Positions 22,534 to 43,499 of a DNA stretch of 64,000 nt are shown here, in pieces (positions within the stretch are counted from its first letter, which is position 1; each line of letters begins with the position of its first letter). The DNA lies in NCBI RefSeq assembly GCF_902728285.1, contig NW_027103286.1:3292497-3356496 (forward strand), in the 5' to 3' direction. The stretch comes from Clytia hemisphaerica (lineage: Eukaryota). The position numbers and the translations under genes are program-made. The notes under the pieces were generated by a model, which was not told where the DNA came from, ran no database searches, and worked only from the letters and a program-made list of their open reading frames with translations.

Positions 22534-22780
22534 GTAAGAGTTCCATTCCGACATTTTATTCCAAACATAGATAGAATCCTGACTGGTAATCCAATCACTC
22601 TATACGTTTCATGGTTTGGCCCAAACGTAAAACTTGACTCCCGTATAGGAATATACACGAAATATCTATAGAGGCCTAAGATTTGCAAAGCCATTTCGGG
22701 TCTAAAGGTCGCCGACTGTTCTAATTTTGGTAGCCTGTACTTGTTTTTAACAATTCACTTCTTCTTTTTTCACATGGTAG

Positions 22781-22808
22781 GAACTTAGATGCTGATACTT
22801 CAAAGACA
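22781..22808 (+). CDS. Gene N exon 3 (RNLDADTSKT)
   Basis: Acceptor cacatggtag, donor ACA|GTAAGT. Confidence 0.35.
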
Positions 22809-22847
22809 GTAAGTAAGAAATCAAAGTTTCTTACATATTTTACAAAG

Positions 22848-23077
22848 ATCATGCTGCGTCCAAATAATTGGACACCACTCGTAATATTTGTCATGGCCTT
22901 GGAGTTGGCCACTATTGTTATATCAAGATTTCTTACATATCTTACAAAGATAATGCGGCGTCCAAATAATTGGACACCACTCGTAATGTTTGTTATGGCA
23001 TTGGAGTTGGCCACTATTGTTATGGTGGCCCAATTGGGCACCATTGCTGTCATGAACTTGTCTTCCACCGTGAGCAG
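22848..23077 (+). CDS. Gene N exon 4: two tandem 90-nt copies encoding hydrophobic segments (RPNNWTPLVIFVMALELATIVI x2); the duplicated unit includes the acceptor site
   Basis: ORF 22851..23081; acceptor ttttacaaag at 22847, repeated at 22957-22967; donor AG|GTAGGT. Confidence 0.45.
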
Positions 23078-23841
23078 GTAGGTGAATATGCGAAAAACAT
23101 TCTACAACTGTTGAGACATGATATTTAAACTACCTAAATTTGAGTTCTGATGTCTGATGTCTATTAAAGGGACATAACAGTACTTGCGAAATTTGTAAAC
23201 AAACTGTATGCAGCGGATACAAAATCAAAACAAATGTCACATGTCAAAATAAAAAATCAAACCAAATATGGCTAATTCTGATTGCTCGATTGTTTTACAA
23301 GTTTGTTTTGGACACGTGATTTCAATTGTTCTCTTAAATGACACGGGGTTCGCGCAATGTTTACATTTTACTACTTTTATGTCCCTAAGACATTAGGTTT
23401 GAGCTACCTACTACCTACTAAATTTGCATTTTCCAGAGTTCTGATGTCAGGTGGTGTTTTAACAGATGTGACATTTGATACATTTCTGTTTGCATGCTGG
23501 CTGACAAGATCAACTCGCAAAAACATTTGTGACTGTCAAAAATTTGACGATTATTTGAATTTAAATGCTAAGAACTTAATATTTTTATTTTTAAAAATTT
23601 CAGAACATTTAGGGCTATTAAGACAGAGTTCTGATGTCAGGTGGCGTTTTAACAGATGTGACATTTCGTTCATTTCTGTTTGCATGCTGGCTGACAAGAT
23701 TAACTCGCAAAATACTTGACCACTAACTCACGAAAACATTTGTGACACAAAACTAAAGTTTCAGGCCAAAGAAAGGTCGATTTTCTCCTCAGGAATGATC
23801 CTTTAAAAGGAACTTAACTGTGATTTCTTCTTTTCTTATAG

Positions 23842-23907
23842 CTTTGTATTTCAACCAGAACCGAGCTGGTTAGAAAGCATTTTATATCGAGCTGCAACGC
23901 ATTGTGG
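23842..23907 (+). CDS. Gene N exon 5 (SFVFQPEPSWLESILYRAATHC)
   Basis: Acceptor ttttcttatag, donor GG|GTAAGT. Confidence 0.4.
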
Positions 23908-24055
23908 GTAAGTATTCATAACATCTTCCGAGCATAAGAAAACAAACAAAACTTTATTTTTGTTTTTTTCTCCTGTTTGTACCAGGGAAATGGTTTTACT
24001 GTGTTTTTAAAAACATTTTAAACGTTCATAATTTTCTTATTATTATTATTTTCAG

Positions 24056-24134
24056 ATTGGCGCCCCAGCCACCACCCTCGATGATTTCACAAATAGCCGA
24101 TTACGTTACTGGGATCGCTGGCATCAGCCAGTGA
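24056..24134 (+). CDS. Gene N terminal exon (GLAPQPPPSMISQIADYVTGIAGISQ*)
   Basis: Acceptor ttattttcag; stop TGA 24132-24134. Confidence 0.4.
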
Positions 24135-24610
24135 GCATCCTCAAACGTACACCATTAAGTATACGCATCAAATATTCAAAATGTCAAAAAAATAGTTTCA
24201 AACTTGTGTAAAAAGAAACATTTAGGCCTCAAAGCTCATTTTTGAGGGTATCGCTCGACAGGTTAAGGTTAAACGTTCTATGTCTAGTAAGGTGATAAGC
24301 TTTAATAGCGTAAACTTGAGTAAGACATAAGCCCTCAATGTCCTTCAAAAATTTTGAATATTTCGGTTTGAAGAAAAAAAGAGAGTAGGAGTGAATACCA
24401 TTGAATTCTTTTTCCGCCCTTAAACTCTTAGTACCACCAAAAAGCCCTCACTTTTTGAACTGGAATATTTAGAAATGATTTCCAACAAACTGATAACAAG
24501 TCTATCATTGATACAACAACATAGAACGCTTAACGTTAACCTTTCGAGGCTAGATCTTTGGAAGTGAGCTTTGACAAGTCTAAAACAAAAACAAAACAAA
24601 AATTGAGCTC
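24130..24610. repeat. Dispersed ~450 bp repeat family B (aaac.tttaggcctcaaagc..atttt.ga.ggt...ctttgacaagtctaaa); second copy at 31270-31730
   Basis: Extended collinear similarity between the two copies, read directly. Confidence 0.55.
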
Positions 24611-24639
24611 TCCGATTCATGACTCGCTACCTTTAAGAA

Positions 24640-24900
24640 CTTGTCCAACGTACACGTTTCTTATAAGAATATCCAAAAGTCTTCGGATGTTCTTAACCTT
24701 TTGAGTTTCATATAAGCCTAAAATGTTCTTAACATGTTCTAATTTTCACCATTTTGTGAGTATTTTAGTCCATTTTCTTAAGAAATTAGGTGTTTTAGAG
24801 ACTGCGAAGCCTTAAAATGTTCTTAAATTGCAGCTAATATTTTGGCCATAATAGCCTTACGTTCTTATATAGTTTGTTCTTATAAAAAACGCATATTTAT
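24640..24900 (+). repeat. Family A SINE/MITE-like copy
   Basis: Homology to 2720-2945. Confidence 0.5.
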
Positions 24901-25269
24901 GTGTCTTTTCGAATTCTTATCACTACAACCTGTTTTAGCTTGAGAGAATTCTACCTGGGGCTGTTCCATTTAACACATACATGGGGATGGACGAACCTTT
25001 TCAAGCTAAAAAAGATTCTCGAGAATGCGCCGATATCCCCTGGAAAAAAGGAAAATTTTGCTAAAAAACCATAGGAAAAAAAACCCTTGGAAAAATTCTC
25101 CTTTTGTCTCAAATTGGGGGGTGGACGAAGTAAAACCAGTCTTTTACACCCTGGAATGTATTTTAGAGTAACTTTAACCCCCTGAAAATTAGGTTGAGTC
25201 CCTTGAAATTACAAAAAATTTCCCTGACCCTTTGGATGAGTACACGTTTTTTTTATGAGGACATTCAAA

Positions 25270-25700
25270 AATTTGAAGCCTTTGGATGTTCTTACCATTT
25301 TCAGTTTTAAACCTAAGAACGTTCTTAGAGAGGCTCTATCTTACAATTCCTGCATTACTAAAAATAGACAAAAAGAACGACAAATTTCATATTTTGCCAT
25401 CCACAACCCCAACTGAAAGTGACTGTACCACCCCTTTCATTTGTTTTTGTTTATCACGGGAAATAACTACTTGTGGTCTAAAAGAACGACAAATTACGCA
25501 TGCGTGTTATTAATGCAGGAATTGTCAGTCGAACCCACTGTTACAATGTTTTTATTTTCACCGTTTTTGAGCATTTTTTGTTCATTTTCTTAAAAAGTTG
25601 GTTGTTTTTCAGTCCACAACGCCGTAAAATGTTCTTAGCTTCTTCTTAATATTTTGGTCATCGAATCCTTATGCTCTTATATAGTTTGTTCTTATAAAAA
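25270..25700 (+). repeat. Family A copy or copies (25270-25330 and 25545-25700), possibly interrupted
   Basis: Homology to 2720-2945, including the ttcttataaaaaaacgtgt terminus. Confidence 0.45.
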
Positions 25701-28099
25701 AACGTGTAATGAAACTTGCATTTCACACTTGGAAATGGGAAAAACGGGTAGACGATACTTCGTCATCCAAATATAAATTGGAATACCCAACACACTTCTA
25801 TAAGACTAAAATCTGCGGACAACCGAAATGCAGGCCAAATTTTTGCGGAACGACCATTTAGAGGGCGCGAAGCGCCCGAATAGGGAGTGTTGCATCCTTT
25901 CCTAGATCTGCTTGTGGCGTAAAAAAATCTGCACGAATTTTCGAAAATTAGAATTTTTTTTCCCGCTTCTTCCAGATGTCTGGGCCAAGGATTTTTTCTG
26001 CGTTTTATTTTTCAAAACAACAAAGATGGCTAGAAGACCAACGAGGACTTAAGTCAACAAAATTCTTCAGTTTTTGATATGTACATGCATTACTTTTGGA
26101 CCCTTTTTTCGCATTGAAATAATTTCTTGCTCAGAACTTCTTTCATTTTTTGTGAACATTTTGTTGGGTTTAGTCGAGCCGGTACTTTACAGAACGACTC
26201 TATTCTATCACGCTCAGACAAAATCAATTTCCTTCTGTAAGATTGAGTCAGTTATGATTAATTTACAGAACGATTAATACTCAAAAAACTATTTGACGTC
26301 AGATCAACATTCTGACGTCAAAAAGCTATGGTTACTATTGGAGATTCCAGAAATGCACACATTGCAAGGAGCGAACAAGCTAGAACAGCACCACACTTAC
26401 CAACTTACAACACGGAACAGACGTATTCTACAATCACGGAATAACACCTAACTATCAACATAAACCATACCCCAGTAACCGGTTAGGAATAAGCAAGCAA
26501 CACACCAAACACTGTACAGAAATTTGCAATCATGTTTTCTTACTTTTCATTCAAAACGGTTGAGGTATGTATTGTTCTCATTTTGTCGAACGATTCCGTC
26601 TATACAGCACCTGACCCCGAGAATGTAGGTGAAATTTGAATCAGACCTGTGAGATGTAGATTTGCATTTAAAAAAATATTGAATGTTTTAAACGAAATTT
26701 TGAACTCCCAAAATCCTTTCCCAGAGGTTAGTTTCATTACTTTTGATAGATAGGCTAATTTTTTTGGTCCTTGAAGTTGACTCCTATTTTCGTTATAACC
26801 CCCAGAATGTAGGTTTGGTTTTATGGCTTTAAATCTAGTAATAGTAAAATGTTGATATTTTTTTCGATTGAATTAATTATAACAGGAAATTTTAGAAATA
26901 TTTTATGCCAAAACAATATTCTAAAGAGCTTTTGTTATTCTGAAAATTGGATTTTTTCGCTTTTTAACCCCCAAATGTAGGTGAAAAGATTCGGTTGCTG
27001 AGAGCAAAATTTCAGTATTCATCGGAAATTTTTGTTCTGTATGTGAAATTCATACTTTAGAAATATACTCTGACAAAAAATTAACAAAGGTATTAATTTT
27101 ATCGTGCTACAAATGATGAAAAGTAAAAGAAAGGACGAAAAGAAGAGACAAGAAAGTTGTTTTTATTTTGTAGGTTGAAGATTCTGTGTTAAAATATGTG
27201 AATAATGTAACAACACCCCTGCCTCATAGAACTTTTCCCACATCGGGTCAAAAAATTTCTACTAAATTCCCAATGGGGATAGAAATTCTATTGTTCCAAA
27301 CTTAGGCAAATTTTCTGATTGGGCTGGGGTCCCAGCGGGTCTGGGACACGTTGTAAAAGCTTAAAATGCCAACATTAATCATCTCTCAGGTAATACTTTC
27401 ATGTTATGAAAGTACAACAAAAAAGTTTTATATAATTTGACAGACTTTTTATGTCGGGTTAAGAAGGCTCCCAAATTGTAGGTCAACTAACCCCAATAGG
27501 TAGGTCAAACATTTTCGTTAAAATATCTAACTTAGAACAATAAATATTGAAATGGACTATTTTCCACATTTTCTTAGTTCATTAGGAATAAGAAAATACC
27601 CTATCGTCATAACTTAATTCCAATAGATTTCGATTTAGAGAGGATTTATTTAAAAAATGTCTCAATTCGAGTAGTATCCAATCAACTTCGATTTAGATTT
27701 TCGCCTGAAAAAATCAATTCAAGTTAAAATTTTATGTCTAGAAATAATCAGTAATATGTAACAGTATGCTCTGAAACAACTTTTTATGAAGTTGAACTAT
27801 CGTTAGGGCTACCATGCTAAAAAATGAGAAACCTACATTCTCGGGGTTTACTACATTCTCGGGGTCAGGTGTTGTACCTTCATAATTCATACACACAGTA
27901 ATGTTATTCCAATACTTTTCAAAAATCTGATAAGAAATTATCTGACTCAAAAAATCATTTTAAAAATATAGGTAAAAAACGATTTAGCATGATACAAGCT
28001 TGTCGGGCGCCCTAAAATTACTTATACGGTGTTTTCTCGCTTATTTCGTAGGATAAACTCATTAGCCAAGAGCTGATCACTGAAAATAGTGAAAAACGA

Positions 28100-28563
28100 A
28101 TGAAAGAAGATGAAAGTAATTCGACATTGACAGCTAGTGGTAGCACATATACAAACAATTTAACTTTGAATGAAAGTGGAACCTCGAGAACGGGTAGCAC
28201 TTATTCGAGACATGAATGCTCGAAGGAGAATGTTATCTCAGGAACGGGGAGCAGATATTCACGTCATGAACGATCGAAGGAGACAGTTATCTCAAGAACC
28301 GGTAGCAGTTATGCAAGCCGTGGACATTTACAAGAGAGTGTTACCTCGAGAACCGCCAGCACCTATTCACGCCATGAACACCCGGAAGGTGTAGCCTCAA
28401 GAACGGGGAGCCCCTTTTCAAGTCACGATAGATTGAAGGAGAACGTTATCTCAAGAACAAATAGTGCCAATCCAAATGTCTCAGTTGTTGAGAGGAATGG
28501 GGAAGACGCCCTTGTGTCAGGGTCCAATGAGAGAGTGAATGGAAGTCAGATACTCTTTCATAG
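28100..28563 (+). CDS. Nested gene P exon 1: ATG, then ~17-aa Ser/Thr/Arg-rich tandem repeats (SRTGSxYSRHExSKExVI x5)
   Basis: ORF 28100..28585 with a periodic protein repeat; donor AG|GTATAT at 28564. Confidence 0.45.
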
Positions 28564-29087
28564 GTATATTATCTCTTCTTTTTGATATCCGATAACAGGT
28601 GTCTTTTATTGAGTCATCATTAACACATATTTCCAGAATCTATCTATCTATCTGTCTAGAAGATAACTTTATATATTTTCCGTCCTGTTTATTAGCAAAG
28701 ACACTAACGGATATCTTGCTTTAAGGGTTTTATTTTTACATATGTTTTCCCGTTTCATATCAGACATGTATTTAATACCAGGACAGTGTTTGCCTACTGT
28801 TATATTGTGCAAAAAATAGGTAAAAAATGTTTTTCTTTTCCTCTTTCTTTCTGATTAATCTTGCTCCACGTCCGTGTCAATTCAATATCAAAAAGCTTGT
28901 AAGTTAAAATTGATGAGTAAGCGAACGATATCACTCTTATTCAAAAACAAAACCTTTAATTAGCCAAATTATATGAGTAAAAATGTTAAACACCAAGAGA
29001 CGTTAGACTAGAGATACGATAGCGGTTGCTGAGAGGTAGTTGTTTATAGCATATTGCTTTTCTTGACTTAAATTCACTTTGTTACAG

Positions 29088-29246
29088 CCCAAAGAGCCAC
29101 AAAAACAAACAATTCACCGAAGCGATTACAAGTTTGACCGATACTGTTCTGGCTGCTGTGTTCATCTCCATATGGTTATTTGGAATGATTTTCTTGGTGT
29201 GCACACTGCTGTGCTGCACAAACCAAGCCATTGCTTCTTTCAACGG
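29088..29246 (+). CDS. Gene P exon 2 with a predicted TM helix (LTDTVLAAVFISIWLFGMIFLVCTLLCC)
   Basis: Acceptor tttgttacag, donor GG|GTAAGA; phase-consistent. Confidence 0.45.
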
Positions 29247-29506
29247 GTAAGAAGTTCTCTGAACTCAATTTTAACTGTCTACTGAAGGTTATAATGACGA
29301 GGTCTTTAAAAGAAGGAACCCTTTAAAATGTCCAAGGGCGTGAAAGGTTATAAATTGTTTTAAAATTTAACCACTCAGGCAAAAATCATGTCACTACTTC
29401 ATCCAAATTGACCAGAGAAAACTCTTGGAAAATCTTAAAAATTAATCAATTACGCTCGACTTGTTCATTTATTTCTAAGTACAATTTCTTGTATTCTTCA
29501 TTTCAG

Positions 29507-29554
29507 AGTGATTATCGCCAAAGATGGCCTTCCTACTAAAATTTATCATTACAT
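29507..29554 (+). CDS. Gene P exon 3 (GVIIAKDGLPTKIYHY)
   Basis: Acceptor tcatttcag, donor AT|GTGAGT. Confidence 0.35.
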
Positions 29555-29698
29555 GTGAGTCAACATTACTTTCGCTTTACACAAAAACAGCTCTCGAATC
29601 AACTTTCTATGCGTCTGAATGTCTGGGTTTCAAAGATCAAGAGTCCTTTCCCTAAAAGAATTGGTTACACAAAAGAACATCCAAATCTTCCTTCCTAA

Positions 29699-30361
29699 CA
29701 ACTCGGGTAAATTAATGCGTGTCCAAATTTTCGTTAATCTTTCGGACCCATCATCACCCCTCCTAACATAATAAATTATACCTTTAAAGAAGCGCATTAC
29801 GATGTAGAACATGAAAATCGGTGTTACTTAAATTTAGGTTTTGCCAATTTTGCGAAAGACCGCAAAAACCAAAAAATGCTGACGTCAGCAAAACTTCTTT
29901 TTTAAATAACTCCAGTTTGGCTAATGGTATGAATATGAAATTTGGACGAAAGTTGCACATCATTAAACGGATCATTTTGAAAAAAAAATTTTCGAAATTT
30001 TGCTGATGTCTGCACTTTATTACAAATTTTCGTAAATTGCTGATTTCTGCTGACGTCAGCAAAATTTGAAAAAAAAATTATGCAAAAATGTTTTTATTAA
30101 TGATATGCAACTTTCGTCCAATTTTCATGTTTATACCATTAGCCAAACTGGAGTTATTTAAAAAACAAGTCTTGCTGACGTTAGCATTTTTTGGTTTTTG
30201 CGGTTTTTCGTAAAATTGGCAAAACCTAAATCTAAGTAACACCGATTTTCATGTTCTACATCGTAATGCGCTTCTTTAAAGGTATAATTTATTATGCTAG
30301 GAGGGGTGATGATGGGTCCGAAAGATTAACGAAAATTTGGACACGCATTAATTTACCCGAG
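29699..30361. mobile_element. Foldback element: ~275 bp near-perfect inverted arms around a ~110 bp centre; arms carry GCTGACGTCAGCA (CRE-like palindrome) three times; lies in intron 3 of gene P
   Basis: 29699-29975 is the reverse complement of 30090-30361, read directly (caactcgggtaaattaatgcgtgtcc ... ggacacgcattaatttacccgag). Confidence 0.75.
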
Positions 30362-30664
30362 AATTATAACCAATATTTATTTAAGATTCTAACATTCGCT
30401 TTTCACTGAACAGCTCCACTTAGCACTTCCAGAACTTGGACAGTAGTCAAATCAATTTTTTTTTGAAACGGAAAAAAGATTTTACACAGCAAAGTAGAAT
30501 CTATTCTTGAGATTTTAGCGAATTATAATATATTTTGAGACGGAAAAGTCTTTTTGTAAGCTTCCCTGAGACAGAATAACTTTTGACACTGTAAAGACCT
30601 TAAACAGAGAAATTCACAAAAATCTTCCTTCTTGACAACAACTATCATCAATGGTTCATTTTAG

Positions 30665-30736
30665 GTATGGAAAACCCGAACCAACATGGTCGGAATACGT
30701 GTCATTGAATGTTCATTTGATGTTGGAACACATCAA
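30665..30736 (+). CDS. Gene P exon 4 (MYGKPEPTWSEYVSLNVHLMLEHI)
   Basis: Acceptor ttcattttag, donor AA|GTAAGT. Confidence 0.35.
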
Positions 30737-31095
30737 GTAAGTAAACACCTTCTTTCGTGAGGTATCTAGGTGAATCTCTTAGTCTTAGATCGGAAATAAA
30801 ACCACTTATTTCCCATCTGAAGCGTGTAACCAACGCAGGGTTGAAAGTAAAATGTATCCCTAGATTTTCTAAAACATGCCGTGTGAAAGAAAAAAAAATT
30901 AAAACGCTATATTCAATTTTTCGCTGTTTTTCATTCTAAATATGGCGCAAATCTTCAAGATTCACTTTTTCTTGCTTGACAAAGGTTAAAGATTGATCTA
31001 GCCATTTGAGCTTTAAACTCGATGGTATTGATTGTACTGTTTGTTGTCTTAGCGTTTGAGCGATTACTTAAACAAATATTTTATCTATTTAACAG

Positions 31096-31201
31096 ATCTG
31101 TATGTTTTAAAACACCACCACCGCCTCCCACGTTGTCCGCCCGTGTGGCCCGCTATTTCCAAGACCTGCTGGACCAGGCTTATGGAATTACCTCAGCATA
31201 G
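31096..31201 (+). CDS. Gene P terminal exon (KSVCFKTPPPPPTLSARVARYFQDLLDQAYGITSA*)
   Basis: Acceptor tatttaacag; stop TAG 31199-31201. Confidence 0.4.
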
Positions 31202-31269
31202 TCTTTAACAGACTACAAATCACTCAAAAAAATAATAAAATGTAAAATATAAAAAAAGTTTATAATGTC

Positions 31270-31730
31270 ATTAAAAAAGAAACTGTTTAGGCCTCAAAGC
31301 TTATTTTCGAAGGTTGAGCACAACAGTTTAAGGTTCTCAATGTTTTAAGGTGAAACTTCTTTTTCGCGCGACAATTTAGCATCAAAAAAGGAAAATAGCC
31401 CTCACATTCCTTGAGCGCCGAAAAAAAACAAATTAGCTTCTTTTTTATTTGGAAATCGACTTTTCTACCATTTTGAGATATTTTAGTTTGAAGAAGTGTG
31501 AAAAATTGAACACAATCAAATCCTTTCTCACTCTCTACAACATCAATAAAGCCCTCATTTTTCTAACTGGAATGTTTCGAATTGCAGTTTAGTTCATTTA
31601 CAAAGGAAAATAGAATCAGTTTTACCACCTTAACTAATAGAAGTTTCCCTTAAACATCTGAACGTTAAACTTTTGTGCTCAACACTCGAAAGTGAGCTTT
31701 GACAAGTCTAAACAAAAAATAGGAAAAGAT
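31270..31730. repeat. Family B dispersed repeat, second copy
   Basis: Homology to 24130-24610. Confidence 0.55.
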
Positions 31731-31809
31731 AAACTAATATCATTTCAATTCGATTTCTCCTCCCAAACCCGGTTACTATCTAAAGTTAAATAGAATAATT
31801 TTTACATAC

Positions 31810-31888
31810 CGATGTTTCGACAGGCGAATCCAATGTAATCTGGTACGGAAAACAATTTGGTTTCTGATGCAAAATTGCCATTTTCGTA
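31810..31888 (-). CDS. MVP: MVP exon 17 (YENGNFASETKLFSVPDYIGFACRNI); its 3' splice site is the seed of the adjacent minisatellite
   Basis: Acceptor ctttcag, donor G|GTATGT; matches ETAKLFSVPDFVGDACKAIA. Confidence 0.8.
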
Positions 31889-33497
31889 CTGAAAGAAAAG
31901 AGAAAGAGGTCAATTATTTGTATGAAATTGCCATTTTCATACTGAAAGAAAAGAGAAAGAGGTCAGTTATTTGTATGAAATTGCCATTTTCATACTGAAA
32001 GAAAAGAGAAAGAGGTCAGTTATTTGTATGAAATTGCCCATTTTCGTACTGAAAGAAAAGAGAAAGAAGGTCAGTTTATTTGTATGAAATTGCCATTTTC
32101 GTACTGAAAGAAAAGAGAAAGAGGTCAGTTATTTGTATGAAATTGCCATTTTCGTACTGAAAGAAAGAGAAAGAGGTCAATTATTTGTATGAATTGCCAT
32201 TTTCATACTGAAAGAAAAGAGAAAGAGGTCAGTTATTTGTATGAAATTGCCATTTTCGTACTGAAAGAAAAGAGAAAGAGGTCAGTTATTTGTATGAAAT
32301 TGCCATTTTCGTACTGAAAGAAAAGAGAAAGAGGTCAATTATTTGTATGAAATTGCCATTTTCGTACTGAAAGAAAGAGAAAGAGGTCAGTTATTGTATG
32401 AAATTGCCATTTTCGTACTGAACAAAAGAGAAAGAGGTCAATTATTGTATGAAATTGCCATTTTCATACTGAAAGAAAAGAGAAAGAGGTCAGTTATTTG
32501 TATGAAATTGCCATTTTCGTACTGAAAGAAAAGAGAAAGAGGTCAATTATTTGTATGAAATTGCCATTTTCATACTGAAAGAAAAGAGAAAGAGGTCAGT
32601 TATTTGTATGAAATTGCCATTTTCATACTGAAAGAAAGAGAAAGAGGTCAGTTATTTGTATGAAATTGCCATTTTCGTACTGAAAGAAAAGAGAAAGAGG
32701 TCAGTTATTTGTATGAAATTGCCATTTTCATACTGAAAGAAAAGAGAAAGAGGTCAGTTTTTGTATGAAATTGCCATTTTCGTACTGAAAGAAAAGAGAA
32801 AGAGGTCAGTTATTTGTATGAAATTGCCATTTTCGTACTGAAAGAAGAGAAAAGAGGTCAGTTATTTGTATGACATTGCCATTTTCATACTGAAAGAAAA
32901 GAGAAAGAGGTCAGTTATTTGTATGAAATTGCCATTTTCGTACTGAAAGAAAAGAGAAAGAGGTCAGTTATTTGTATGAAATTGCCATTTTCATACTGAA
33001 AGAAAAGAGAAAGAGGTCAGTTATTTGTATGAAATTGCCATTTTCGTACTGAAAGAAAAGAGAAAGAGGTCAGTTATTTGTATGAAATTGCCATTTTCGT
33101 ACTGAAAGAAAAGAGAAAGAGGTCAGTTATTTGTATAGAAATTGCCATTTCGTACTGAAAGAAAAGAGAAGAGGTCAATTATTTGTATGAAATTGCCATT
33201 TTCATACTGAAGAAAAGAGAAAGAGGTCAGTTTATTTGTATGAAATTGCCATTTTCGTACTGAAAGAAAGAGAAAGAGGTCAGTTTATTGTATGAAATTG
33301 CCATTTTCGTACTGAAAGAAAGAGAAAGAGGTCAGTATTTGTATGAAATTGCCATTTTCGTACTGAAAGAAAAGAGAAAGAGGTCAGTTATTTGTATGAA
33401 ATTGCCATTTTCATACTGAAAGAAAAGAGAAAGAGGTCAGTTATTTGTATGAAATTGCCATTTTCATACTGGAAGAAAAGAGAAAGAGGTCAGTTAT
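31861..33497. repeat. Minisatellite, about 30 copies of a ~52 bp unit (gaaattgccattttcgtactgaaagaaaagagaaagaggtcagttatttgtat); on the minus strand each unit is a polypyrimidine tract + CAG + the first 17 nt of MVP exon 17
   Basis: Periodicity read directly; the first unit overlaps the real exon 17 acceptor at 31888-31890. Confidence 0.9.
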
Positions 33498-33664
33498 TCT
33501 ATTTAGTCGGACACTTATATCAAGAATCAGAGCTTTGGTCTGGCCATTTTTTTGTCTGAGCTTCGGGCTGTTCTCGTATCAGCTTATATAAAGAACACGA
33601 CTTTGGTTCTCTTCGGCGAAGTAAAATTTTGGAAATAAGTTAATCGGGTAGTATAAGTACATAC

Positions 33665-33724
33665 ATCAAATTTATTGTTGGCAGCATATTTGATCTTCAA
33701 TCGTGCATGATCAAGTGTCTCCAC
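33665..33724 (-). CDS. MVP: MVP exon 16 (VETLDHARLKIKYAANNKFD)
   Basis: Acceptor caacag, donor GAT|GTATGT. Confidence 0.7.
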
Positions 33725-33871
33725 CTGTTGGGAATTGAAACAAAAGAATTTAAAGGTGAGTAACTATTAAACCCCAAAACAAGGAAGCTTGTTTACAACA
33801 ATGTAAACAATGTAGATAAGATAATTTGGGCAAGCGCTCCTCAGAGCTTTATCTAGCAACATCTGTTTTAC

Positions 33872-33951
33872 CTCAATGATGTCAGTGATATAGTCAGGAC
33901 CAAGCATGATTGCTAAAGATTTCAATGCGTTCTCTTTTTTTGGTTTGCCAG
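33872..33951 (-). CDS. MVP: MVP exon 15 (AGKPKKENALKSLAIMLGPDYITDIIE)
   Basis: Acceptor cttacag, donor GAG|GTAAAA; matches [20 protein letters not shown]. Confidence 0.75.
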
Positions 33952-34120
33952 CTGTAAGATATAAAGACAAAGAAATTATCATTATCTGATTTGACCTTTT
34001 GAAAAAGAGAAACCTTTTGTGAGTACGATAAACTTATACATGAAAGCAATGCGGTCGGGATTTTTTTTGTGGGCATATAAAAGTATTTAGGAAAGACAAG
34101 GGACAGAAGATAAAACCTAC

Positions 34121-34166
34121 CACTCAAACTCAAAACGTTGAATTCTTCTGAGGGCTCGAGCACAAC
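34121..34166 (-). CDS. MVP: MVP exon 14 (VVLEPSEEFNVLSLS)
   Basis: Acceptor aatttcag, donor G|GTAGGT. Confidence 0.65.
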
Positions 34167-34358
34167 CTGAAATTAGACAGGAACATAACAGCGTAATAAG
34201 TTAAAATGAGAAGTAAAAATTCTCATATTTATAATGGGAAGTTCATTGTAATGAATTAATCGTCAAGTTAACGAGTCAACGAAAGTTACGATAGATCTTT
34301 AAAAAATAAAGACGACTTTAATGATGATAAAGTATCCACAAATTGAAACACTCCTTAC

Positions 34359-34463
34359 CAAGTTTGGGCCAAAGACAACTCGACTGTCTTGTTTTCGATG
34401 GTCATATACTTGAACAGCTGAATTGGGTGGAACACGATAGGTGACAGTTCGTGTCTTGTCACG
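34359..34463 (-). CDS. MVP: MVP exon 13 ([35 protein letters not shown])
   Basis: Acceptor tttttcag, donor TTG|GTAAGG; matches [35 protein letters not shown]. Confidence 0.8.
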
Positions 34464-34653
34464 CTGAAAAAAACGAATCGGAGAATTAAGGAACTCATTG
34501 TCGTTTTTCTTTCTTGGCGATAGACATATTTAAGGGGTATGAATCTTTATTAACTTACATCTTAAAACATTTAGAAGAAAAAACCGCAAATTAATGAGTA
34601 ATAGGTAGAAATACAAAATGTTCCTTTCTGGATGAACGATAACGTGAACAAAC

Positions 34654-34738
34654 CTTTCCAGAAGCATAAGCATTGTCGACTGAAGATTCAAAGTAAGCCA
34701 TTTTTCGAATGTCTCCATCACCCCAGCATCCACCGTTC
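34654..34738 (-). CDS. MVP: MVP exon 12 (MNGGCWGDGDIRKMAYFESSVDNAYASGK), a variable linker region
   Basis: Acceptor ttttcag, donor AAG|GTTTGT; phase-consistent but weakly conserved. Confidence 0.55.
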
Positions 34739-34909
34739 CTGAAAATGAAAGCAAGGAATAATTATTAATAAGTTTAAGTGCAATAAAAAAGCAAGCAGAA
34801 ATTTGTGTTTCAAAAGTTATGGCCCTTTTAAGTACTACTGGTATCTTGACCCCTCTACTACAGTTTAGTCATAGTTGGCAGAGAACGTGTTAAAAATGAA
34901 ATTGCTTAC

Positions 34910-35004
34910 ATTAACATCTTTTCCACGATAGGTGATAACTCTTTCTTCCATAAGACTTCGAATTGGTTCAGTAAGCATGCTTGAGGTCCCATTACCGTAC
35001 GAAC
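34910..35004 (-). CDS. MVP: MVP exon 11 (VRTVMGPQACLLNQFEVLWKKELSPIVEKML)
   Basis: Acceptor ctccag, donor AT|GTAAGC; matches [30 protein letters not shown]. Confidence 0.75.
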
Positions 35005-35167
35005 CTGGAGATAAAGAAAATGATATTCTGGTGACTTGTGTCGTGCTGTGGCAAAGAAGAAGATATACTGATCTGATCTGATGACTTATCGTTGCACGGC
35101 TAGTTTTACAAGCTCAAGAAATTCGGTTTATCTGCAAGTTTTTGAGAAGTTCCCAAGGGTTCTTACC

Positions 35168-35228
35168 TCTCCAGTCTTTTCATTTTGAACGTAAATTCCT
35201 TCATTCTTTCCAAGTGCAATAGGTTTTC
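35168..35228 (-). CDS. MVP: MVP exon 10 (RKPIALGKNEGIYVQNEKTGE)
   Basis: Acceptor aaaacag, donor GAG|GTAAGA; matches ENEGIYVQDVKTGK. Confidence 0.75.
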
Positions 35229-35502
35229 TGTTTTAAACAAAATGAGCAAAGAATATCAATTTAACGTATCTACTACCACTTGCTTAGACAATGTTTTTAA
35301 ACAAAAGAAAGAACGACTTTCACTCCCTCCCTCAACGCGCGGGCATAAATTTGATGAAAAGTTTATTCTGCTTTATCAGCATAAGGGGAGCACCTGCTTT
35401 GTATAACATAAAAACTATATCTTTAAAATTTCCCAGTTGAAAAAAAGTATTTGGAAGCAAGCAAAACAGTTGGCTTAAAATAAATATTGAAAGGATTTCT
35501 AC

Positions 35503-35593
35503 CTGAGATTCTTTACTTCCACTTCGACAGGCGGTGTGTATACAACCGGCCCTTTGATCATCCAAACATCTCCAGGCTTTCGTTGGATGGGTT
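35503..35593 (-). CDS. MVP: MVP exon 9 ([30 protein letters not shown])
   Basis: Acceptor attttag, donor AG|GTAGAA; matches [23 protein letters not shown]. Confidence 0.7.
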
Positions 35594-35891
35594 CTAAAAT
35601 ACAAAATACGAAGTTCTCCTTTACCATGAAAATTGAAGAGTTCCTTTTTCACTAGAGCCACTATTTTTACTTTTTACAGCCATTTTAAAAAGCGTAGTGA
35701 AAAATGACAAAAACAGCCTTTCCTGTGGAAACTAACCAATTGGAAAATACACATACATTAACAAAACTTATCATCTCGAAAGAAGGGGATTTTGGAACAA
35801 TTGGTATCATTGGTGATTTTCATCACATAATGCGTCTTTTGAAAATCTTATTCTTCGTCAAACAAAGAAAAAAGACATCTGCTTTACAGAC

Positions 35892-35993
35892 CTTCACCAA
35901 AGTTGTCAACAAATTCATCGACAGCAGAGAGGATGAGGGCTTGATCATCTTGTAATAAGAAAATGTTTTGGATCCCTCCACTCAATGTCTCTC
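35892..35993 (-). CDS. MVP: MVP exon 8 (GETLSGGIQNIFLLQDDQALILSAVDEFVDNFGE)
   Basis: Acceptor ttacag, donor G|GTCTGT (weak); phase checked. Confidence 0.7.
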
Positions 35994-36166
35994 CTGTAAA
36001 AAGGAAAAAAGTAAAGAAGTTATAGTGAATAGCTGCAAATAATAACTTATACGATAAGAGACATAGGTTTGAAGGAAATTCATATTCAGCAAACATTATG
36101 GTGCGAATCTGTAGACAAATATTGCACAGTAAAATTTCCAGTTCTTCTAGAGGGTTGAACACATAC

Positions 36167-36308
36167 CAGGTTTTAAGAAGAAAGAGAGGGGTCCTTTTCG
36201 GAGTTCTTTCTTGCCACGTTGTTGTTTTCCTTCGCTGTCATAGGGATCAAGAACAATACAGAATTGATCTTTCGATAAAACTGTTATGGCAACTCTTCTC
36301 ACCAATTT
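36167..36308 (-). CDS. MVP: MVP exon 7 ([47 protein letters not shown])
   Basis: Acceptor tctttag, donor G|GTATGT; matches PITTLGPHNYCVILDP...KSFFLQPG. Confidence 0.75.
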
Positions 36309-36482
36309 CTAAAGATATGAGTGCATTTGTGTAAGAATTATAATTCAGTGCTAAAATGTCCTATGGCTTGTTATCTGTGGTTGCATCTGTATGTTTCCGA
36401 ACATATAAATTTCACATTCAAAGACTCTCCTGATTGAAGAAGATCAATATTTAAAAGCTATAAAGAAGATGAAGGGAAATAC

Positions 36483-36549
36483 CTCTCCACATTCTGGTAT
36501 ATAAGTACAACTATCACTGGACGTGACCAACCATTCTTCACCGGCAAGT
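36483..36549 (-). CDS. MVP: MVP exon 6 (RLAGEEWLVTSSDSCTYIPECGE)
   Basis: Acceptor gatttcag, donor GAG|GTATTT. Confidence 0.75.
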
Positions 36550-37008
36550 CTGAAATCAAAAGTGAGGTGGTGGTTTAGTGAAAAGTAAAAACACATCCAA
36601 AGGCTTTTAACGAAGTCAACCGGGTGGTATCCCCCAGTAATCCCTCCTTTTTTGAAGCGTTTTTGCACTATTTGAAAAGTGAATTTTAACTCCAAAACCA
36701 CTAAACAAAATTTAAAAAGTTAGCCTTCAAAATTTAAGATAGAATATCCTCATCTAATATAAGTATTTTCAGGGTCGTTCAACAATCTATTCTTTCTCAA
36801 GAAGGTAACCAACGTCCGAAGTTTTTTTTGGACCGGCCGGTATTTGTTTGAATTACAGAGAGATTCGAGTTATGGAAAGTATTTAATACTGTTTTATCCT
36901 TATAAAGGGGATTAAGAAAAAGATTGAACTATAGAAAGGTTCCAATGCTCGAATTAGAGAGAGTCAACAGTAGTTTGCTTTCACATTAAAACTTAAAATT
37001 GAGCTCAC

Positions 37009-37159
37009 CTTTTCTTGCCCAGACCATCAGTCAAGTTTCTTTCCGCAGTCATATATAAACCATTATTCTGTGTCAAAACATAGCTTTGAACAACAGACAT
37101 AATTTCCTCGTATACTCCAGGAAGGTAAGCTCCAAGTTTTCGAACCATCCATTCTTCTC
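37009..37159 (-). CDS. MVP: MVP exon 5 (GEEWMVRKLGAYLPGVYEEIMSVVQSYVLTQNNGLYMTAERNLTDGLGKK)
   Basis: Acceptor tattacag, donor AG|GTGAGC; 151 nt; phase checked. Confidence 0.8.
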
Positions 37160-37389
37160 CTGTAATACAAACCAAAAAAGATCTTTAAAAGTCGAAAAGA
37201 TCAAAGTTGGACCTTGTTTACCAATTGACCATGCCGCTTATGTTTGATTTTGTTCAATCTATATCCTCATATTGCTACTAACATCACGTTGGTTATGCCT
37301 GGTTATGCTATTGCAAATTGTTCATATCCCTTCAAATCCAAAATGAAATGAGTTCATTAAATTCTAGCAAATCATTTGAACATGCTTAC

Positions 37390-37650
37390 CTGTTACTCTG
37401 TGGTTTCCATTTTTATCAACCAAATCAATTTTAGCTTTCAAGTGTAAAGCTGAATTCTTAAGGATAATGGTAGGGCTAACTTCTCCAATTCGTTTGCATT
37501 CGGGTTTTGGGTAAAATGTGCAAGGGCCTTCGATTTGCCACCTGTCACCGGCAACACGAATCGTTCCATTGTCATCAAAGTCTGCAAGGGCTTCTAACTT
37601 CAACGCTTTTCCAGCTGGGATCACTGGAAGTTTGTTGATGCCTTTCTCAA
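37390..37650 (-). CDS. MVP: MVP exon 4 (VEKGINKLPVIPAGKALKLEALADFDDNGTIRVAGDRWQIEGPCTFYPKPE...NGNHRVTG)
   Basis: Acceptor cttttttttag, donor ACAG|GTAAGC; overlaps ORF 37364..37624; 8.8 kb intron upstream. Confidence 0.8.
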
Positions 37651-38014
37651 CTAAAAAAAAGAAAATTAAATATCAAATTATTTAGCCTGTACCAAACTCT
37701 TCTTCACAGGAAAAAAAACCACGTGGTACACCGACAAGATTATTTATTAAAAGAGCAAAAAATCGACCAGTAGGGATAGGACTGGCTATAGCAAACTAGG
37801 AGTTTTGACTATCTTCATATTATTGTTAGAGGGACCGATCGGACAATATATCTAACTATCAATATAAGTTTGTATGGTAATTGTTTCTGTTATCAAACTT
37901 TCCTGGGGTAAAGAGGGATGAAAAATATGTATTTTAAGCTAATGTTTTGATTTTTTTTAAATTTTTTGTATAAAACTAATTACAAAATTATCAAGTTTAG
38001 CTTAAGATAATACA

Positions 38015-38135
38015 TTGGAGTCTCCATAACTCTCCATTGCAAATTTGTTCAAGTTTATGAGACATAGTTAAATGAAGGGACCATGAAACTTGTTTGAGTT
38101 AAGGAGACGTATTCGAGTTATGAATTTATCAAAAT
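38015..38135. repeat. TAACTCGAA/TCGAGTTA SINE-like family copy
   Basis: ggagtctccataactc...tttgagttaaggagacgtattcgagttatg. Confidence 0.4.
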
Positions 38136-38279
38136 TACAAAAGTTATCTTCATTAATACAGTGAAAACCCAGCCACACTACCTTGGCAATTAATTCGAAA
38201 ATTAGGGAAGGAACATTTTTCTCGACATGTTTCGGACTCGAGGTAAATTTGTAAAATTAATGAATAAAATTAATATGCA

Positions 38280-38520
38280 TTACACACTTTTTTCTTTTAT
38301 AAGAACAATTCTGTAAGAACAACGATGCTCAAAATCCCAAAAAAATTTAAATTAAGAACAAATCTGAGCCTGGAATTACTCATTTCAAGCAATTTAGGGG
38401 TCAAAGTATTCTAAATTGCTTTAATTTCACCCTATAGATAAGAACAGGATAAAAACAATTTGAGGCTCAAAGTGGTAAAAAATAAGAACAGCCAAGCCTC
38501 GTCAAAAATTCACTAGTTCT
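38280..38520 (-). repeat. Family A copy, inverted orientation
   Basis: tttataagaacaa...taagaaca is the reverse complement of the family A terminus. Confidence 0.45.
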
Positions 38521-38778
38521 AATAAAAAAAAGGTGTACTAAAAGCAGCTAAAAGAGCCATTGATCATTCATTGCCTAATAACGTATGAAACTTTTTGAGG
38601 AGTAAATATATTTCTAAATATTGGACGGCAAAGTTTGGAATCTGAACGTTTCAATACGAATCAACACGAGCCTCATCCAAAATTTACTAGTTTGCATCTA
38701 AGCTAAGCAGTCTTATTTGCAATTTGAAGATTTTAAACCTCCCATCTTGTTATTGCGAAGTTTTTATTTTTTTAACTA

Positions 38779-38914
38779 CCTTATCGGCCCTTTTTACGCC
38801 GGCCCTTATTAGCGTTATTTTTGGGCTCATGGCGTAATAAGGGCCGTTGTTAAAAAGGCCGGCGTAGAAAGAACCGGCGTTAAATTAAGGTCGGCGTAAA
38901 AAGGGCCGATAAGG
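38779..38914. mobile_element. Small MITE (~136 bp): TIR ccttatcggccctttttacgccg, TA flanks
   Basis: TIRs at 38779-38801 and 38892-38914; TA at 38777-78 and 38915-16. Confidence 0.65.
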
Positions 38915-39218
38915 TAATCTTATTAAATTGACCTTTCACGACCTCCACTTTACGTTATTATTAGACTCGAGGCTTGAAAAATGAATTGAAACGAAAAACT
39001 AAAAAGCTCAAAAATAAGATAAGAATGACAGTCAAAACTAAACTAAACGGATCCGTTGGTTTTCCAACGGTTCCGGTGACTGGTCAGAAGACAACATGAG
39101 AGCGACTGTATTCACTTCATTGTAATACATAAGGGCAATATTCATAAACTATATAATGCCAATATATAAAAATGATTGCATAAAAATATACCATAAATCT
39201 ATTTTTTTGGGCAAATCT

Positions 39219-42200
39219 TCATTTATGATATTCGAGCTTAGCTTTACTGTTTAAGTAATTGATAAAAAATTGAATTTTTCTCTCGTCACTGCCAGAGTTC
39301 ATCCCGACTGTTTTTTCGGCTTCGGCGAATGGCCAATCCACCTCGACTTGTAAAGAATTCACGGTTCTGATGAAGCCGACGCAATCTTTATTGTTTAGTT
39401 CAATGACCAAACCTTGGGAGCCTATCATGACGTCAGGGATTTTCAACTTGAGCGAGAAAAACTTCATGAAAAACTTGATTTGCTGTTCGTAATATAAGGG
39501 AATTGTAGAATCCAATGGTACACTTTGAATCTCAACTACAGTAAATGGTAATGGACAGAGAGGTTTGGTTTTTGATTGATGAAAGAACTTTAAAAACCAT
39601 TTACATTCCGGTACGTCCATATCGATAATCAGTGACTCGAGTCCGACCATTTTATCCGGGATTTTGAGGACTGATGTCACTTTTCCAGAGGAATCAGTTT
39701 TAACAATATTAGTACTGGTAAAAGATGCCTCCATGTCACGTATGTCTTGAGAAGTCAAATGACTACAAATCTCAAACTTTTGGAACGGGTCTTCATCTAA
39801 CTTCAATGATGTGGCGGTGACAAGTTTAAGGAACCCCATGCATTCTTTATGGTGTTTGTTAATGAGCAACGTGTCACCACCCTTCATACAATCCGGTACT
39901 TTTAAAGTCGTGATATTGTTCTTTTCAAGCAAGTAAACAACTTCCTCAATATAATCAAGCTGTATATCAGACTTTACCTCAGCTGTTTTATCAAACGAAC
40001 TATCAACAATAACAAAATTTCGATCAACACCAATCAGAGCGATTAGGTTTTTGAACTCTGGGGTGTCCATATCAATAATCAAAGTATTTTGTCCAATCAA
40101 ACAATTTGGTCTTTTGAGTTTGAGGTTCATATCATTTATGAAGCTTGCTACTTTAATTGGTTCACCTTCCATAAGCAGTCGCTGGATACTTGCTGTAGAA
40201 TATGGACATTCAACTTGATAATTTGAATAATAAATGAAGTTAATTAACTCTCTGCAAGCATCTATAGCTGTGTTGATGATTATAGAGTCAGTATCTACCA
40301 TAGATCTAGGAAGTTCAAGTTTGAGATTCGAAGATTCAATAATGTATTTGATCTGTTCTATATTCTTTTGATTTATTTGACTGTGGATTTCGATCGATGT
40401 CATTGGATAAACTGGTTTCAATTGCAGATCATAAGCAACGTTTATATGATGTCTACACTCTGGAAAATTCGTATTGATAATAATCGAGTCAGTACTAACC
40501 ATACAGCTAGGAATGTCGAGTTTTAAATTCGAGGCTTTGATAATATATTGTATTTTTCTCATATCTGTACGATTGATTTGACTGTGAATTTCGATCGAAG
40601 TTGCAGGATAAACTGGTTGTAATTGCAGATCATAAGCAATGTTTATATGATATCTACATTCGGGGGAATTCGTGTTGATAATTAAAACATCAGAGCCGAT
40701 CATACAATCGGGGACTTTTAATTTCAAATTCAAACGTTTGATAATAGACGGTAATTTATCTTTGATGAATTGTTCATCCTCAGGCTTTAAAAATGCTTCG
40801 CCTGCAGAAAATGGATATTTGACGTAAGAATATGGACAATCCACCGACGCCCTAGTTCTATGGACAATTTTCATAAATTGGATACATTCAGTGTTCCTAG
40901 TGTTAACGACTAAAGCATTAGTGCTTTTCATCACGCGTGGAAGTCTTAATACGAGATTCAGATGTTGAACAAGAAAACTCACGAGGTCGAAGTCAAAATT
41001 AACCTCAAAGGTGATGTCAGCTTTGGCAAAGAGATGATCTTTTGATGTTAACTTCGAATCTCTCAAAAACTTAACCCACTGTTTACATTCTGGTATTGCA
41101 GTATTAATGATGAGACTATCCACGCCCTGCATACATCTAGGTATTTTAAGCTTGAGATTCAAATGTTCGACAAGGAAAACGACATTCCTCAAATCAATTC
41201 CACGAAGATCACATTTGATCTCCACTGTAGAAAATGGGCATTCTACGCGCATGCGTCCTTCATAGAGCGTCGTCATGAATTCTTGGCATTCTGGGATTTC
41301 AGAATTAACGATCAGGCTGTCCGGTCCAAACATACAATCTGGTATTTCAACAACACTATTCTTTACCAGGTACCTTTCAAATCTCCAGGATCTGAAGGGC
41401 TGTACAAATCTTCCATACATGGATGACCTACTCCGATGTAAATCAGATAGCCGTCTGAAGAATTTAATGAAAACGTCGTTCTCGTTCAAAAGTCGACCGA
41501 TACCGAACATAACAGGTGCACAACTTGAAAGCTCGCGGTTTCTTAAATATGGAGAGATTCCTTTAGTAACGTACAAATGAAGTCCTGTCAGGAATTCCTG
41601 AAGAACTAAGTGCTTGTACTGGTAAATCGGTTCTCGCATTTCACCACGATTGTATTTGACGATAAGACCCGTTTGCTCAAGATGTACGGGACATTTCAAT
41701 TGACGAACCTCCTCTTCAGAAAACAATACCTGGTTTTTCATATAAGTTTTTACCGATAAAGTCATCAATGAATAAATACAATCGATCACATTAGCATCGT
41801 CAAGCATTTCAAGCAAGTTGTCATAGCCTTTATTACATAAACCTTGTAAATGTTTCCTCAAAAAGACAAGGCATGCATACATGTTAAGTTCAGTGTAAGT
41901 ATTTAACGGTTTCGTTATGAGATCCTCGCTGTACACGTTACAGATGACCCAAGCAAACACGGGAACGGTAGACATGACTTTCAAATTATGCGATGACCTA
42001 ATGATCTCCTTCACTCGAATGGCTTTTTCAGTGTTCTCGTTAAAGAATTTATCGATGTATTGTTCGACTTCCTCCTCTTTGAAACCGCAAACCTCAACTG
42101 TTTTTATTTTGATCACCTTTCTGCTGGAAATTTTTAACTCCAGAATCTCTTTCTTTACAAAGTCACACGCTTTTGGTCTCCCAGATGCAATACATTTGTG

Positions 42201-42869: not shown

Positions 42870-42924
42870 GAATGCTACTGAATCTCTGTCGTCTCAGTAT
42901 TTGAAGTTTTTTAGAGAATACAGT

Positions 42925-43454: not shown

Positions 43455-43499
43455 AACTTCTGTGGTGCAATATATTCCAGGTTCTTAAAAAACAAAATT

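Follow-up and report, generated by a model that had tools for sequence, protein, structure and literature searches.

A 53-bp intronic minisatellite reiterates the 3' splice site of exon 17 in the major vault protein gene of Clytia hemisphaerica

Host gene and position of the array

The window, i.e. the whole stretch of DNA that was analysed, comprises 64,000 nucleotides from the hydrozoan Clytia hemisphaerica. All coordinates given below are those of the window, and a slash within a motif marks a boundary. A tblastn search of the window, for which a vault protein sequence served as a query, showed that a gene for the major vault protein (MVP) occupies the minus strand between about 47,000 and 17,800. 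The NCBI protein XP_066920152.1 (845 aa), named 'major vault protein-like [Clytia hemisphaerica]', is encoded on the same 3.97-Mb contig. The coding sequence (CDS) was rebuilt from the window by chaining GT..AG junctions, which gave 26 coding exons; the protein that they encode is identical to XP_066920152.1 at every residue. Therefore, the MVP gene is intact, the numbering of exons 16 and 17 is correct and the authentic acceptor of intron 16 lies in the last unit of the array described below. All of this agrees with an earlier sequence-only reading of the same DNA, which had assigned the repeat to a minus-strand MVP gene, placed the end of exon 16 at 33665 and recognized the real exon in the last unit, at 31888. 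An unannotated gene or a pseudogene was also considered as the host and is ruled out by the intact, exact CDS and by the NCBI annotation.

The main features of the gene around the array are the following:

17758..47293, minus strand: span of the whole MVP CDS, 26 coding exons (translation identical to XP_066920152.1)
33665..33724, minus strand: coding exon 16, 60 nt, VETLDHARLKIKYAANNKFD, donor GAT/gtatgt (exact CDS reconstruction)
33499..33664, minus strand: unique 5' part of intron 16, 166 nt (sequence and CDS map)
31810..31888, minus strand: coding exon 17, 79 nt, YENGNFASETKLFSVPDYIGFACRNI + 1 nt, donor TCG/gtatgt; positions 31872-31888, the first 17 nt, are also part of the array (CDS and protein alignment)
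20902..21044, minus strand: coding exon 18, across the 10,765-nt intron 17 (exact CDS reconstruction)

The cluster of MVP proteins includes the reference-transcriptome model TCONS_00072364, and the Pfam domains Vault, Vault_2/3/4 and MVP_shoulder were found on its members. The protein search apparently retains only matches of about the length of the query (113-359 aa for a query of 205 aa; full-length proteins for a query of 678 aa). The join between exons 16 and 17 aligns with other vault proteins and requires no extra gap. The introns of the gene are mostly short, with a median of 249 nt and 21 of the 25 between 131 and 459 nt; the three that directly precede intron 16 measure 192, 169 and 147 nt. 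Exon sizes range from 46 to 261 nt. An intronless ORF of 1,216 aa, nested in an MVP intron, matches an NCBI protein of Clytia hemisphaerica with 100% identity.

Structure of the array and anatomy of its units

Intron 16 harbours a single head-to-tail tandem array that extends from 31872 to 33498 and for which TRF reports a period of 53, 30.9 copies, 95% matches and a score of 2936. The repeat had been described as built of units of about 52 bp; the repeat itself stands and its period is corrected to 53. On the minus strand, the anchor AG/TAYGAAA identifies exactly 31 acceptors that are spaced by 51-55 nt. These are 30 decoys, in keeping with the about 30 announced by the sequence-only reading, whose first exon-side bases run from 33468 to 31941, and the authentic acceptor, whose first exon-side base is 31888. 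A 31-nt probe spanning the acceptor has 23 matches at three mismatches or fewer, versus none in 100 dinucleotide-preserving shuffles, and no match outside the array across the 64-kb window. The features of the array are the following:

31872..33498, minus strand: 53-bp minisatellite, 30.9 copies (TRF, unit-by-unit dissection, pattern search against shuffles)
33469..33470, minus strand: AG of decoy acceptor 1, the most upstream and the first transcribed; tract variant cttccag (unit dissection)
31942..31943, minus strand: AG of decoy acceptor 30, whose use would add 53 nt, with a stop 153 nt past exon 16
31909..31913, minus strand: predicted branch-point-like motif TTGAC in the authentic unit, A at -22 (read from the sequence)
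31891..31908, minus strand: polypyrimidine tract of the authentic acceptor, cctctttctcttttctttc (sequence; third of 25 acceptors by position weight matrix)
31889..31890, minus strand: authentic AG at the 3' end of intron 16, which closes the array as its 31st acceptor (acceptor dissection, exact CDS, transcript junctions)

Each unit consists of a complete 3' splice-site module to which the opening 17 nt of exon 17 are attached. Its minus-strand sequence is TAYGAAAATGGCAATTTC-ATACAAATAA-(C or T)TGAC-CTCTTTCTCTTTTCTTTC-AG, and the consensus unit is TACGAAAATGGCAATTTC ATACAAATAA CTGAC CTCTTTCTCTTTTCTTTC AG. The polypyrimidine tract of each unit is 18 nt long and purely pyrimidine, and the only AG of the unit is that of the acceptor, no second AG being found. 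Dissection of the units thus bears out the tract, the AG and the 17 exonic nucleotides that had been noticed previously. Every unit also carries a branch-point-like yUnAy motif, which was absent from the earlier description. It reads CTGAC in most decoys and TTGAC in the authentic unit, both of which fit the yUnAy branch-point consensus, and its A is located at -22.

Ten of the 30 decoys are identical to the authentic site from -20 to +3, and two are identical over the whole interval from -36 to +17. The authentic intron/exon boundary is held by the terminal monomer, which ends 17 nt inside exon 17, so that positions 31872-31888 are common to the array and the exon. The identity between the exon and the units covers 17 nt in this assembly and 18 nt when the allele of six transcript contigs (TTTC/G) is considered. 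The decoy units add 1,580 nt to intron 16, which would otherwise measure 196 nt; the same length separates the donor of exon 16 from the first decoy AG, and it falls in the size class of the neighbouring introns.

Origin of the unit and absence of the array in relatives

Orthologous MVP exons were found on two contigs from related hydrozoans, L001 (ENA) and L002 (a Tara Pacific scaffold), with a protein identity to the window of 45-91% depending on the exon. Their introns at the same phase-0 position measure about 700 and 940 nt, respectively, and neither of these two matching introns contains a tandem repeat. Therefore, the expansion is lineage-specific.

The exon-side 17 nt of the unit encode YENGNF, and orthologues or homologues begin this exon in a similar way (YKKGDK in L001, WVEGDN in P0010), with the general pattern aromatic-x-x-G/E-D/N. 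The exon-side part of the unit is thus ancestral coding sequence, which indicates that the copying proceeded from the exon to the array. Position 18 of the exon is also informative: the six transcript contigs read AATTTC/GCATCAG, the reference exon reads AATTTT/GCATCAG and the units keep the C. As the units retain this C, the segment that was originally duplicated reached 18 nt into the exon, and the T of the reference exon 17 is, judging from this comparison, a later CpG-to-TpG change. On the upstream side, the homology between the unit and the unique flank begins at AATAACTGACC. The motif ATACA, which makes up about 5 nt of the unit, has no convincing match to either flank and is therefore treated as a junction filler.

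The reverse history, in which an older intronic satellite or a transposon-borne repeat would have spread into the exon, so that the start of exon 17 would derive from the repeat, appears scarcely credible. It could draw on the frequency of minisatellites, which are common both in the window and in the MVP locus of a relative. However, the unit is found nowhere else in the 64-kb window or in the JGI contigs, the 17-18 nt in common encode residues that are homologous to those found at the same position in other vault proteins, and the ancestral C at position 18 is kept by the units and lost from the reference exon.

Variation among units

Compared with their consensus, the units show 21 substitutions and 22 indels of a single base over 1,580 nt. 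C-to-T changes at the only CpG of the unit account for 12 of the substitutions, one other C/T site accounts for six and three occur elsewhere, while most of the indels fall in runs of A or T. Seventeen distinct units can be recognized. Variation at the two C/T sites is associated (Fisher p = 0.026), as expected if unequal exchange spreads unit haplotypes. As the second of these sites is not a CpG and is yet associated with the first, unit turnover also spreads variants. CpG methylation might have caused the TACG/TATG alternation, as both variable exon-side sites correspond to CpG-to-TpG changes, but the depletion of CpG is mild, with an observed/expected ratio of 0.80 in the window and 0.88 in the gene body.

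The copy number and the unit variants rest on one assembly, and the homopolymer indels could be assembly errors. It might thus be supposed that the array is real but that its length and its unit variants are partly an artefact due to collapse, expansion or homopolymer errors. Such an artefact would account for the fact that all 22 indels are single-base and mostly affect homopolymers of A or T, a pattern typical of errors in long-read consensus sequences. It would not account for the 17 distinct units with structured C/T haplotypes; moreover, the flanks of the array are clean and unique, and its exon junction agrees with independent transcripts. Such a partial artefact of assembly is considered quite improbable.

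The acceptor AG has been lost in none of the 30 decoys. Given about 25 scattered changes, approximately one loss would be expected on the 60 AG bases, so that its absence gives no sign of selection on the splice signals.

Splicing of exon 17 in gene models and transcripts

Six transcript contigs (L003-L008) were aligned with the window, on which they form 27-28 exon blocks with 96-97% identity; they originate from JGI metatranscriptomes and from the Logan assemblies of SRR9024356 and SRR9649839. All six join ...AAATTTGAT straight onto exon 17, and the intronic part of the array unit is absent from all of them. Seven proteins of the MVP cluster, i.e. the NCBI model, the reference-transcriptome model and five transcript products, read ...NNKFD/(Y or F)ENG... 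across the junction; the product of contig L006 is the same as that of L005. A junction with a decoy would be recognized by the signature ...AAATTTGAT/TAYGAAAATGGCAATTTCATAC and the authentic one by AAATTTGAT+TACGAAAATGGCAATTTTGCATC. The authentic acceptor is used in all eight gene models and transcript contigs (two models and six contigs), these assemblies showing the dominant stable isoform only. The dominant stable MVP mRNA, as represented by the assembled transcripts and gene models, thus uses the 31st acceptor. According to their 96-97% identity, L003-L008 stem from other individuals or populations, in which the array may be missing, and reference material stands behind two of the eight, namely the NCBI and reference-transcriptome models. 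Among the JGI contigs, a search for the array unit gave no match and a search for the exon 16-to-unit junction retrieved only the known normal transcript; both results are weak, the collection having held one of the four known JGI transcripts.

In the assembled transcripts, the winning acceptor is the farthest from the donor and the last to be transcribed. Since decoy 1 is located only 196 nt from the donor in a gene with short introns, a pairing of splice sites across the intron or a first-come-first-served co-transcriptional splicing would favour decoy 1. What sets the last unit apart is solely that it continues into the other 61 nt of exon 17 and has the real donor 79 nt downstream.

Strength of the decoys and consequences of their use

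Acceptors were scored with a position weight matrix (PWM) built from the 24 other acceptors of the MVP gene. The authentic acceptor reaches 13.2 bits, the third highest score among the 25 of the gene. The decoys score 8.9-14.1 bits, and all 30 exceed the median of the 24 other acceptors. When joined to exon 16, every one of them leads to a premature stop 24-153 nt past exon 16, so that all 30 decoys are unproductive, as had been anticipated from the stops seen in unit translations.

Each AG overlaps a GT, which, taken as a donor, reaches 2.4 bits (GTATGA) or 0.9 bits (GTACGA), versus 3.7-12.1 bits for the 25 real donors. Both pseudo-donors score below all 25 real donors, and no usable donor was found within the array units. 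Several schemes that involve the units in another way were examined and rejected. Their inclusion as 52-nt 'poison exons' by means of GTATGA or GTACGA is unsupported, both motifs being weaker than every real MVP donor. In the same way, the units cannot be viewed as exons or introns of a tandem array that would each have a donor and an acceptor, since no usable donor is found in the unit. Recursive splicing is impossible, as the AG is followed by TA and not by GT in all units. Masking of the decoys by RNA structure was also discarded, the last five units together with exon 17 folding no better than shuffles (z = -0.25). The idea that the intron contains a structured RNA gene was likewise rejected, since Rfam gave no match anywhere in the window.

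All 30 decoys being both strong and unproductive, the array could be a throttle that is tunable by copy number: decoy-spliced, stop-containing RNAs would be degraded, which would lower the amount of MVP, and longer alleles would yield less of it. The gene-typical distance of 196 nt between the donor and decoy 1 and the transcription of the decoys before the authentic site would favour such a mechanism, and the two pseudo-sites nearest to the exon are used constitutively in the human genes IFI6 and CBS (PMC1557585). However, none of the eight models and transcripts contains a decoy junction or array sequence, the array is missing in both relatives, the splice signals give no sign of selection and nothing suggests that any effect on MVP is used rather than tolerated. 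A throttle is therefore considered unlikely. A broader view, according to which the array is a working length-variable regulator of the vault protein, either because a substantial and regulated share of the transcripts commits to decoys and is destroyed or because the array acts as a kinetic timer, is held to be rather improbable.

The opposite effect can also be imagined. The repeated branch-point and tract modules might aid splicing, either by concentrating U2AF and U2 near the 79-nt exon 17 or by delaying commitment until this exon has been transcribed. The presence of 31 high-scoring tract modules within 1.6 kb and the position of exon 17, which is short and followed by a 10.8-kb intron, would fit such a help. 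Nevertheless, the relatives splice this exon without any array, the authentic site is already the third strongest acceptor of MVP and no RNA structure was detected. This purely speculative idea has very little probability.

Comparison with known repeats and splice-site arrangements

Human minisatellites that reiterate a donor, and whose first monomer spans the exon-intron boundary, have been described in F7, IFI6 (6-16), CBS, LMNB2 and PDGF (Borensztajn et al. 2006, PMC1557585). In F7 intron 7, a 37-bp unit is present in 5-9 copies; although the pseudo-sites are competent, only the most upstream site, adjacent to the exon, is used. IFI6 has 25 pseudo-sites, of which the two nearest to the exon are used, and the other members of the class are located in CBS intron 13, LMNB2 and PDGF intron 4 (PMC1557585). 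Like these elements, the Clytia array has a terminal monomer that spans a splice junction and reiterates the authentic site as sequence-identical intronic pseudo-sites; the copy adjacent to the exon is the one found in the assembled mRNAs of Clytia, as in the mature human ones, and a change in copy number would spare the coding sequence. The two cases differ in that the human arrays reiterate a 5' donor, the authentic one being the first and thus the first transcribed, whereas the Clytia array reiterates a whole 3' module, the authentic one being the last of 31. Furthermore, the human arrays are found in vertebrate genes with long introns and Clytia MVP is a hydrozoan gene with mostly short ones. 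Finally, polymorphism and competence of the pseudo-sites were shown experimentally for the F7 class, whereas the Clytia array is known here from sequence and assembled transcripts. The Clytia array is therefore a mirror-image variant of the F7/IFI6/CBS/LMNB2/PDGF class and not a member of it, since what it reiterates is not a donor and its junction is not carried by the first monomer.

Introns can also be born from tandem arrays (Zhuo et al. 2007 PNAS, as cited in PMC2812944), and alternative introns can arise from tandem duplication (Lehmann et al. 2010, PMC2891723). In these cases, as in Clytia, a duplicated segment carrying splice signals is hidden by splicing; the premature stops brought by extra copies invoke nonsense-mediated decay there and would do so in Clytia. 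However, tandem duplication there generates a new intron from exonic proto-splice sites or from units having both a donor and an acceptor, whereas in Clytia an existing intron has been lengthened ninefold, none has been gained and the units have no usable donor.

Other arrangements share a more limited likeness with the array. In NAGNAG acceptors, as in Clytia, several AGs compete upstream of one exon. However, NAGNAG acceptors lie 3 nt apart, share one branch point and one tract and yield in-frame isoforms, whereas the Clytia acceptors are 53 nt apart, each has its own branch-point-like motif and tract, and every alternative shifts the reading frame or introduces a stop. Recursive sites (ratchet points) are also strong acceptor signals deep in an intron but require AG/GTRAGT; the Clytia sites read AG/TAYGAA, which once joined gives GAT/TAYGAA without any GT, so that the array cannot be removed stepwise. 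The (TG)m(T)n tract of CFTR intron 8, at the acceptor of exon 9, is a polymorphic microsatellite located within one pyrimidine tract that modulates exon skipping. Both it and the Clytia array are tandem repeats that form part of a 3' splice site, but the CFTR tract reiterates neither the AG nor the branch point. A duplication of the intron 12/exon 13 junction reportedly occurs in HEXB.

In the literature searched, no precedent was found for an array on the acceptor side, and nothing was found on Clytia MVP or on the 53-bp repeat. The repeated duplication of an intron-exon junction had been called unusual from the sequence; this must be qualified, since its mirror image on the donor side corresponds to a described human class (PMC1557585).

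A model for the birth and tolerance of the array

The array is probably a neutral or mildly harmful lineage-specific minisatellite that has no dedicated function, was seeded by a duplication spanning the splice junction and persists because the acceptor next to the exon is selected, while any mis-spliced RNA would be degraded. Its absence from the two relatives, the exclusive occurrence of normal junctions in the eight models and transcripts and the lack of any extra conservation of the splice signals all argue for this reading.

The history of the locus could be pictured as follows. A segment straddling the boundary between intron 16 and exon 17, made of about 30 nt of the intron end and 18 nt of the exon, would have been duplicated in tandem together with about 5 nt of filler. 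Replication slippage or unequal exchange would then have raised the number of copies to 31. After any expansion or contraction in register, the remainder of exon 17 would still be attached to one unit; the coding sequence would thus never be broken and the copy number would be free to drift. Two explanations had been proposed from the sequence, a modulation of MVP splicing and replication slippage. The evidence favours slippage or unequal exchange, and it leaves some room for modulation.

The bypass of 30 strong sites would follow the logic of exon definition: the last copy would be chosen because it alone is contiguous with the other 61 nt of exon 17 and is followed by a real donor. Transcripts occasionally spliced to a decoy would be cleared by nonsense-mediated decay. 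The human arrays on the donor side lead to the prediction that the one to three decoys nearest to the exon are used at a low level. Decoys 30, 29 and 28 would yield exons of 132, 185 and 239 nt, respectively, which lie inside the 46-261 nt range of MVP exons, so that some leakage is expected there. A substantial use of decoys followed by decay would also be compatible with the assembled transcripts. At present, nothing indicates a biological role of the array, and such a role is probably absent.

Significance

How the spliceosome chooses among equally good neighbouring sites is an old question, whose donor version has been studied with the F7 minisatellite. The MVP locus offers a natural test of the choice of a 3' splice site, with 31 complete modules, and is more extreme than the donor-side case of F7. 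Scanning, first-come-first-served, intron-definition and exon-definition models predict different outcomes at this locus. Clytia is a laboratory model for which public RNA-seq data and gene-editing tools exist, so that these predictions are open to immediate testing.

For MVP itself, the practical consequence of the array is probably small. If the array did prove to be a working regulator, it would imply a strict exon-anchored rule for the choice of 3' splice sites in a cnidarian, which would prevail over donor proximity and transcription order. If the array is polymorphic, it would provide a ready-made allelic series.

Variation at the start of exon 17

The first seven codons of MVP exon 17 (31868-31888), the segment that is copied into the 53-bp minisatellite of intron 16, differ between Clytia transcripts when the six assembled MVP transcript contigs (L003-L008) are compared with the window.

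Residues encoded at the exon 17 start
YENGNFA: reference, L003, L004 and L008
FENGNFA: L005 and L006
FENGDFT: L007

The TAC/TAT variant of the array units is also present in the real exon 17 of other alleles. A possible source of this common variant is sequence exchange of array units with the one next to the exon, which carries the authentic start of exon 17.

Reading frames of the transcript contigs

The MVP reading frame is broken into two in three of the transcript contigs.

L004: ORFs at 3-587 and 574-1560, with the frame split near exon 15
L005 and L006: a 637-aa ORF preceded by a short one, with the frame split near exons 4-5

All of these splits are located away from the array, and they suggest assembly frameshifts or retained sequence at those points.

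Other introns of MVP

The intron that directly follows exon 17, intron 17 (21045-31809), is the longest of MVP (10,765 nt) and contains two tandem repeats.

22820-23023: 102-bp repeat, 2 copies
28183-28317: 54-bp repeat, 2.5 copies

As the transcripts also reveal, the 3' UTR of MVP is interrupted by an additional intron (17730-17018, minus strand; about 700 nt), the exon junction of which lies only about 28 nt past the stop codon at 17758. By the customary 50-55-nt rule, this junction is too near to the stop codon to provoke nonsense-mediated decay.

Intron 3 of MVP hosts a complete immune-type gene (39219-44941), which is carried by the minus strand, i.e., the same strand as MVP itself.

46437-37651, minus strand: MVP intron 3 (8,787 nt)
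43949-44941, minus strand: HEPN_DZIP3 ORF of the nested gene
39219-42869, minus strand: NACHT ORF of the nested gene
40273-40746: 201-bp tandem duplication (2 copies, 77-80% identical) within the NACHT ORF

The HEPN_DZIP3 and NACHT ORFs jointly match a single NCBI Clytia protein of 1,607 aa (P0066) with 100% identity, and this protein belongs to a large Clytia NACHT family.

Tandem arrays elsewhere in the window and in a related hydrozoan

Two 21/42-bp tandem arrays, separated by about 900 bp, are found near the end of the window.

61054-61319: first array
62222-62496: second array

They are mutually reverse-complementary (GGGATTACCTAATCCCTCTTT versus CCCAAAGAGGATTAGGTAAT), and such an inverted pair may correspond to the two termini of a mobile element.

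In the genomic contig of a related hydrozoan that carries orthologous MVP exons (L001), a 41-bp minisatellite of 21.5 copies with 96% matches (2055-2935) is located a few kb upstream of these exons. Its sequence is unrelated to that of the Clytia 53-bp array. The presence of this element near MVP indicates that large, clean minisatellites within or near this gene are not restricted to Clytia.
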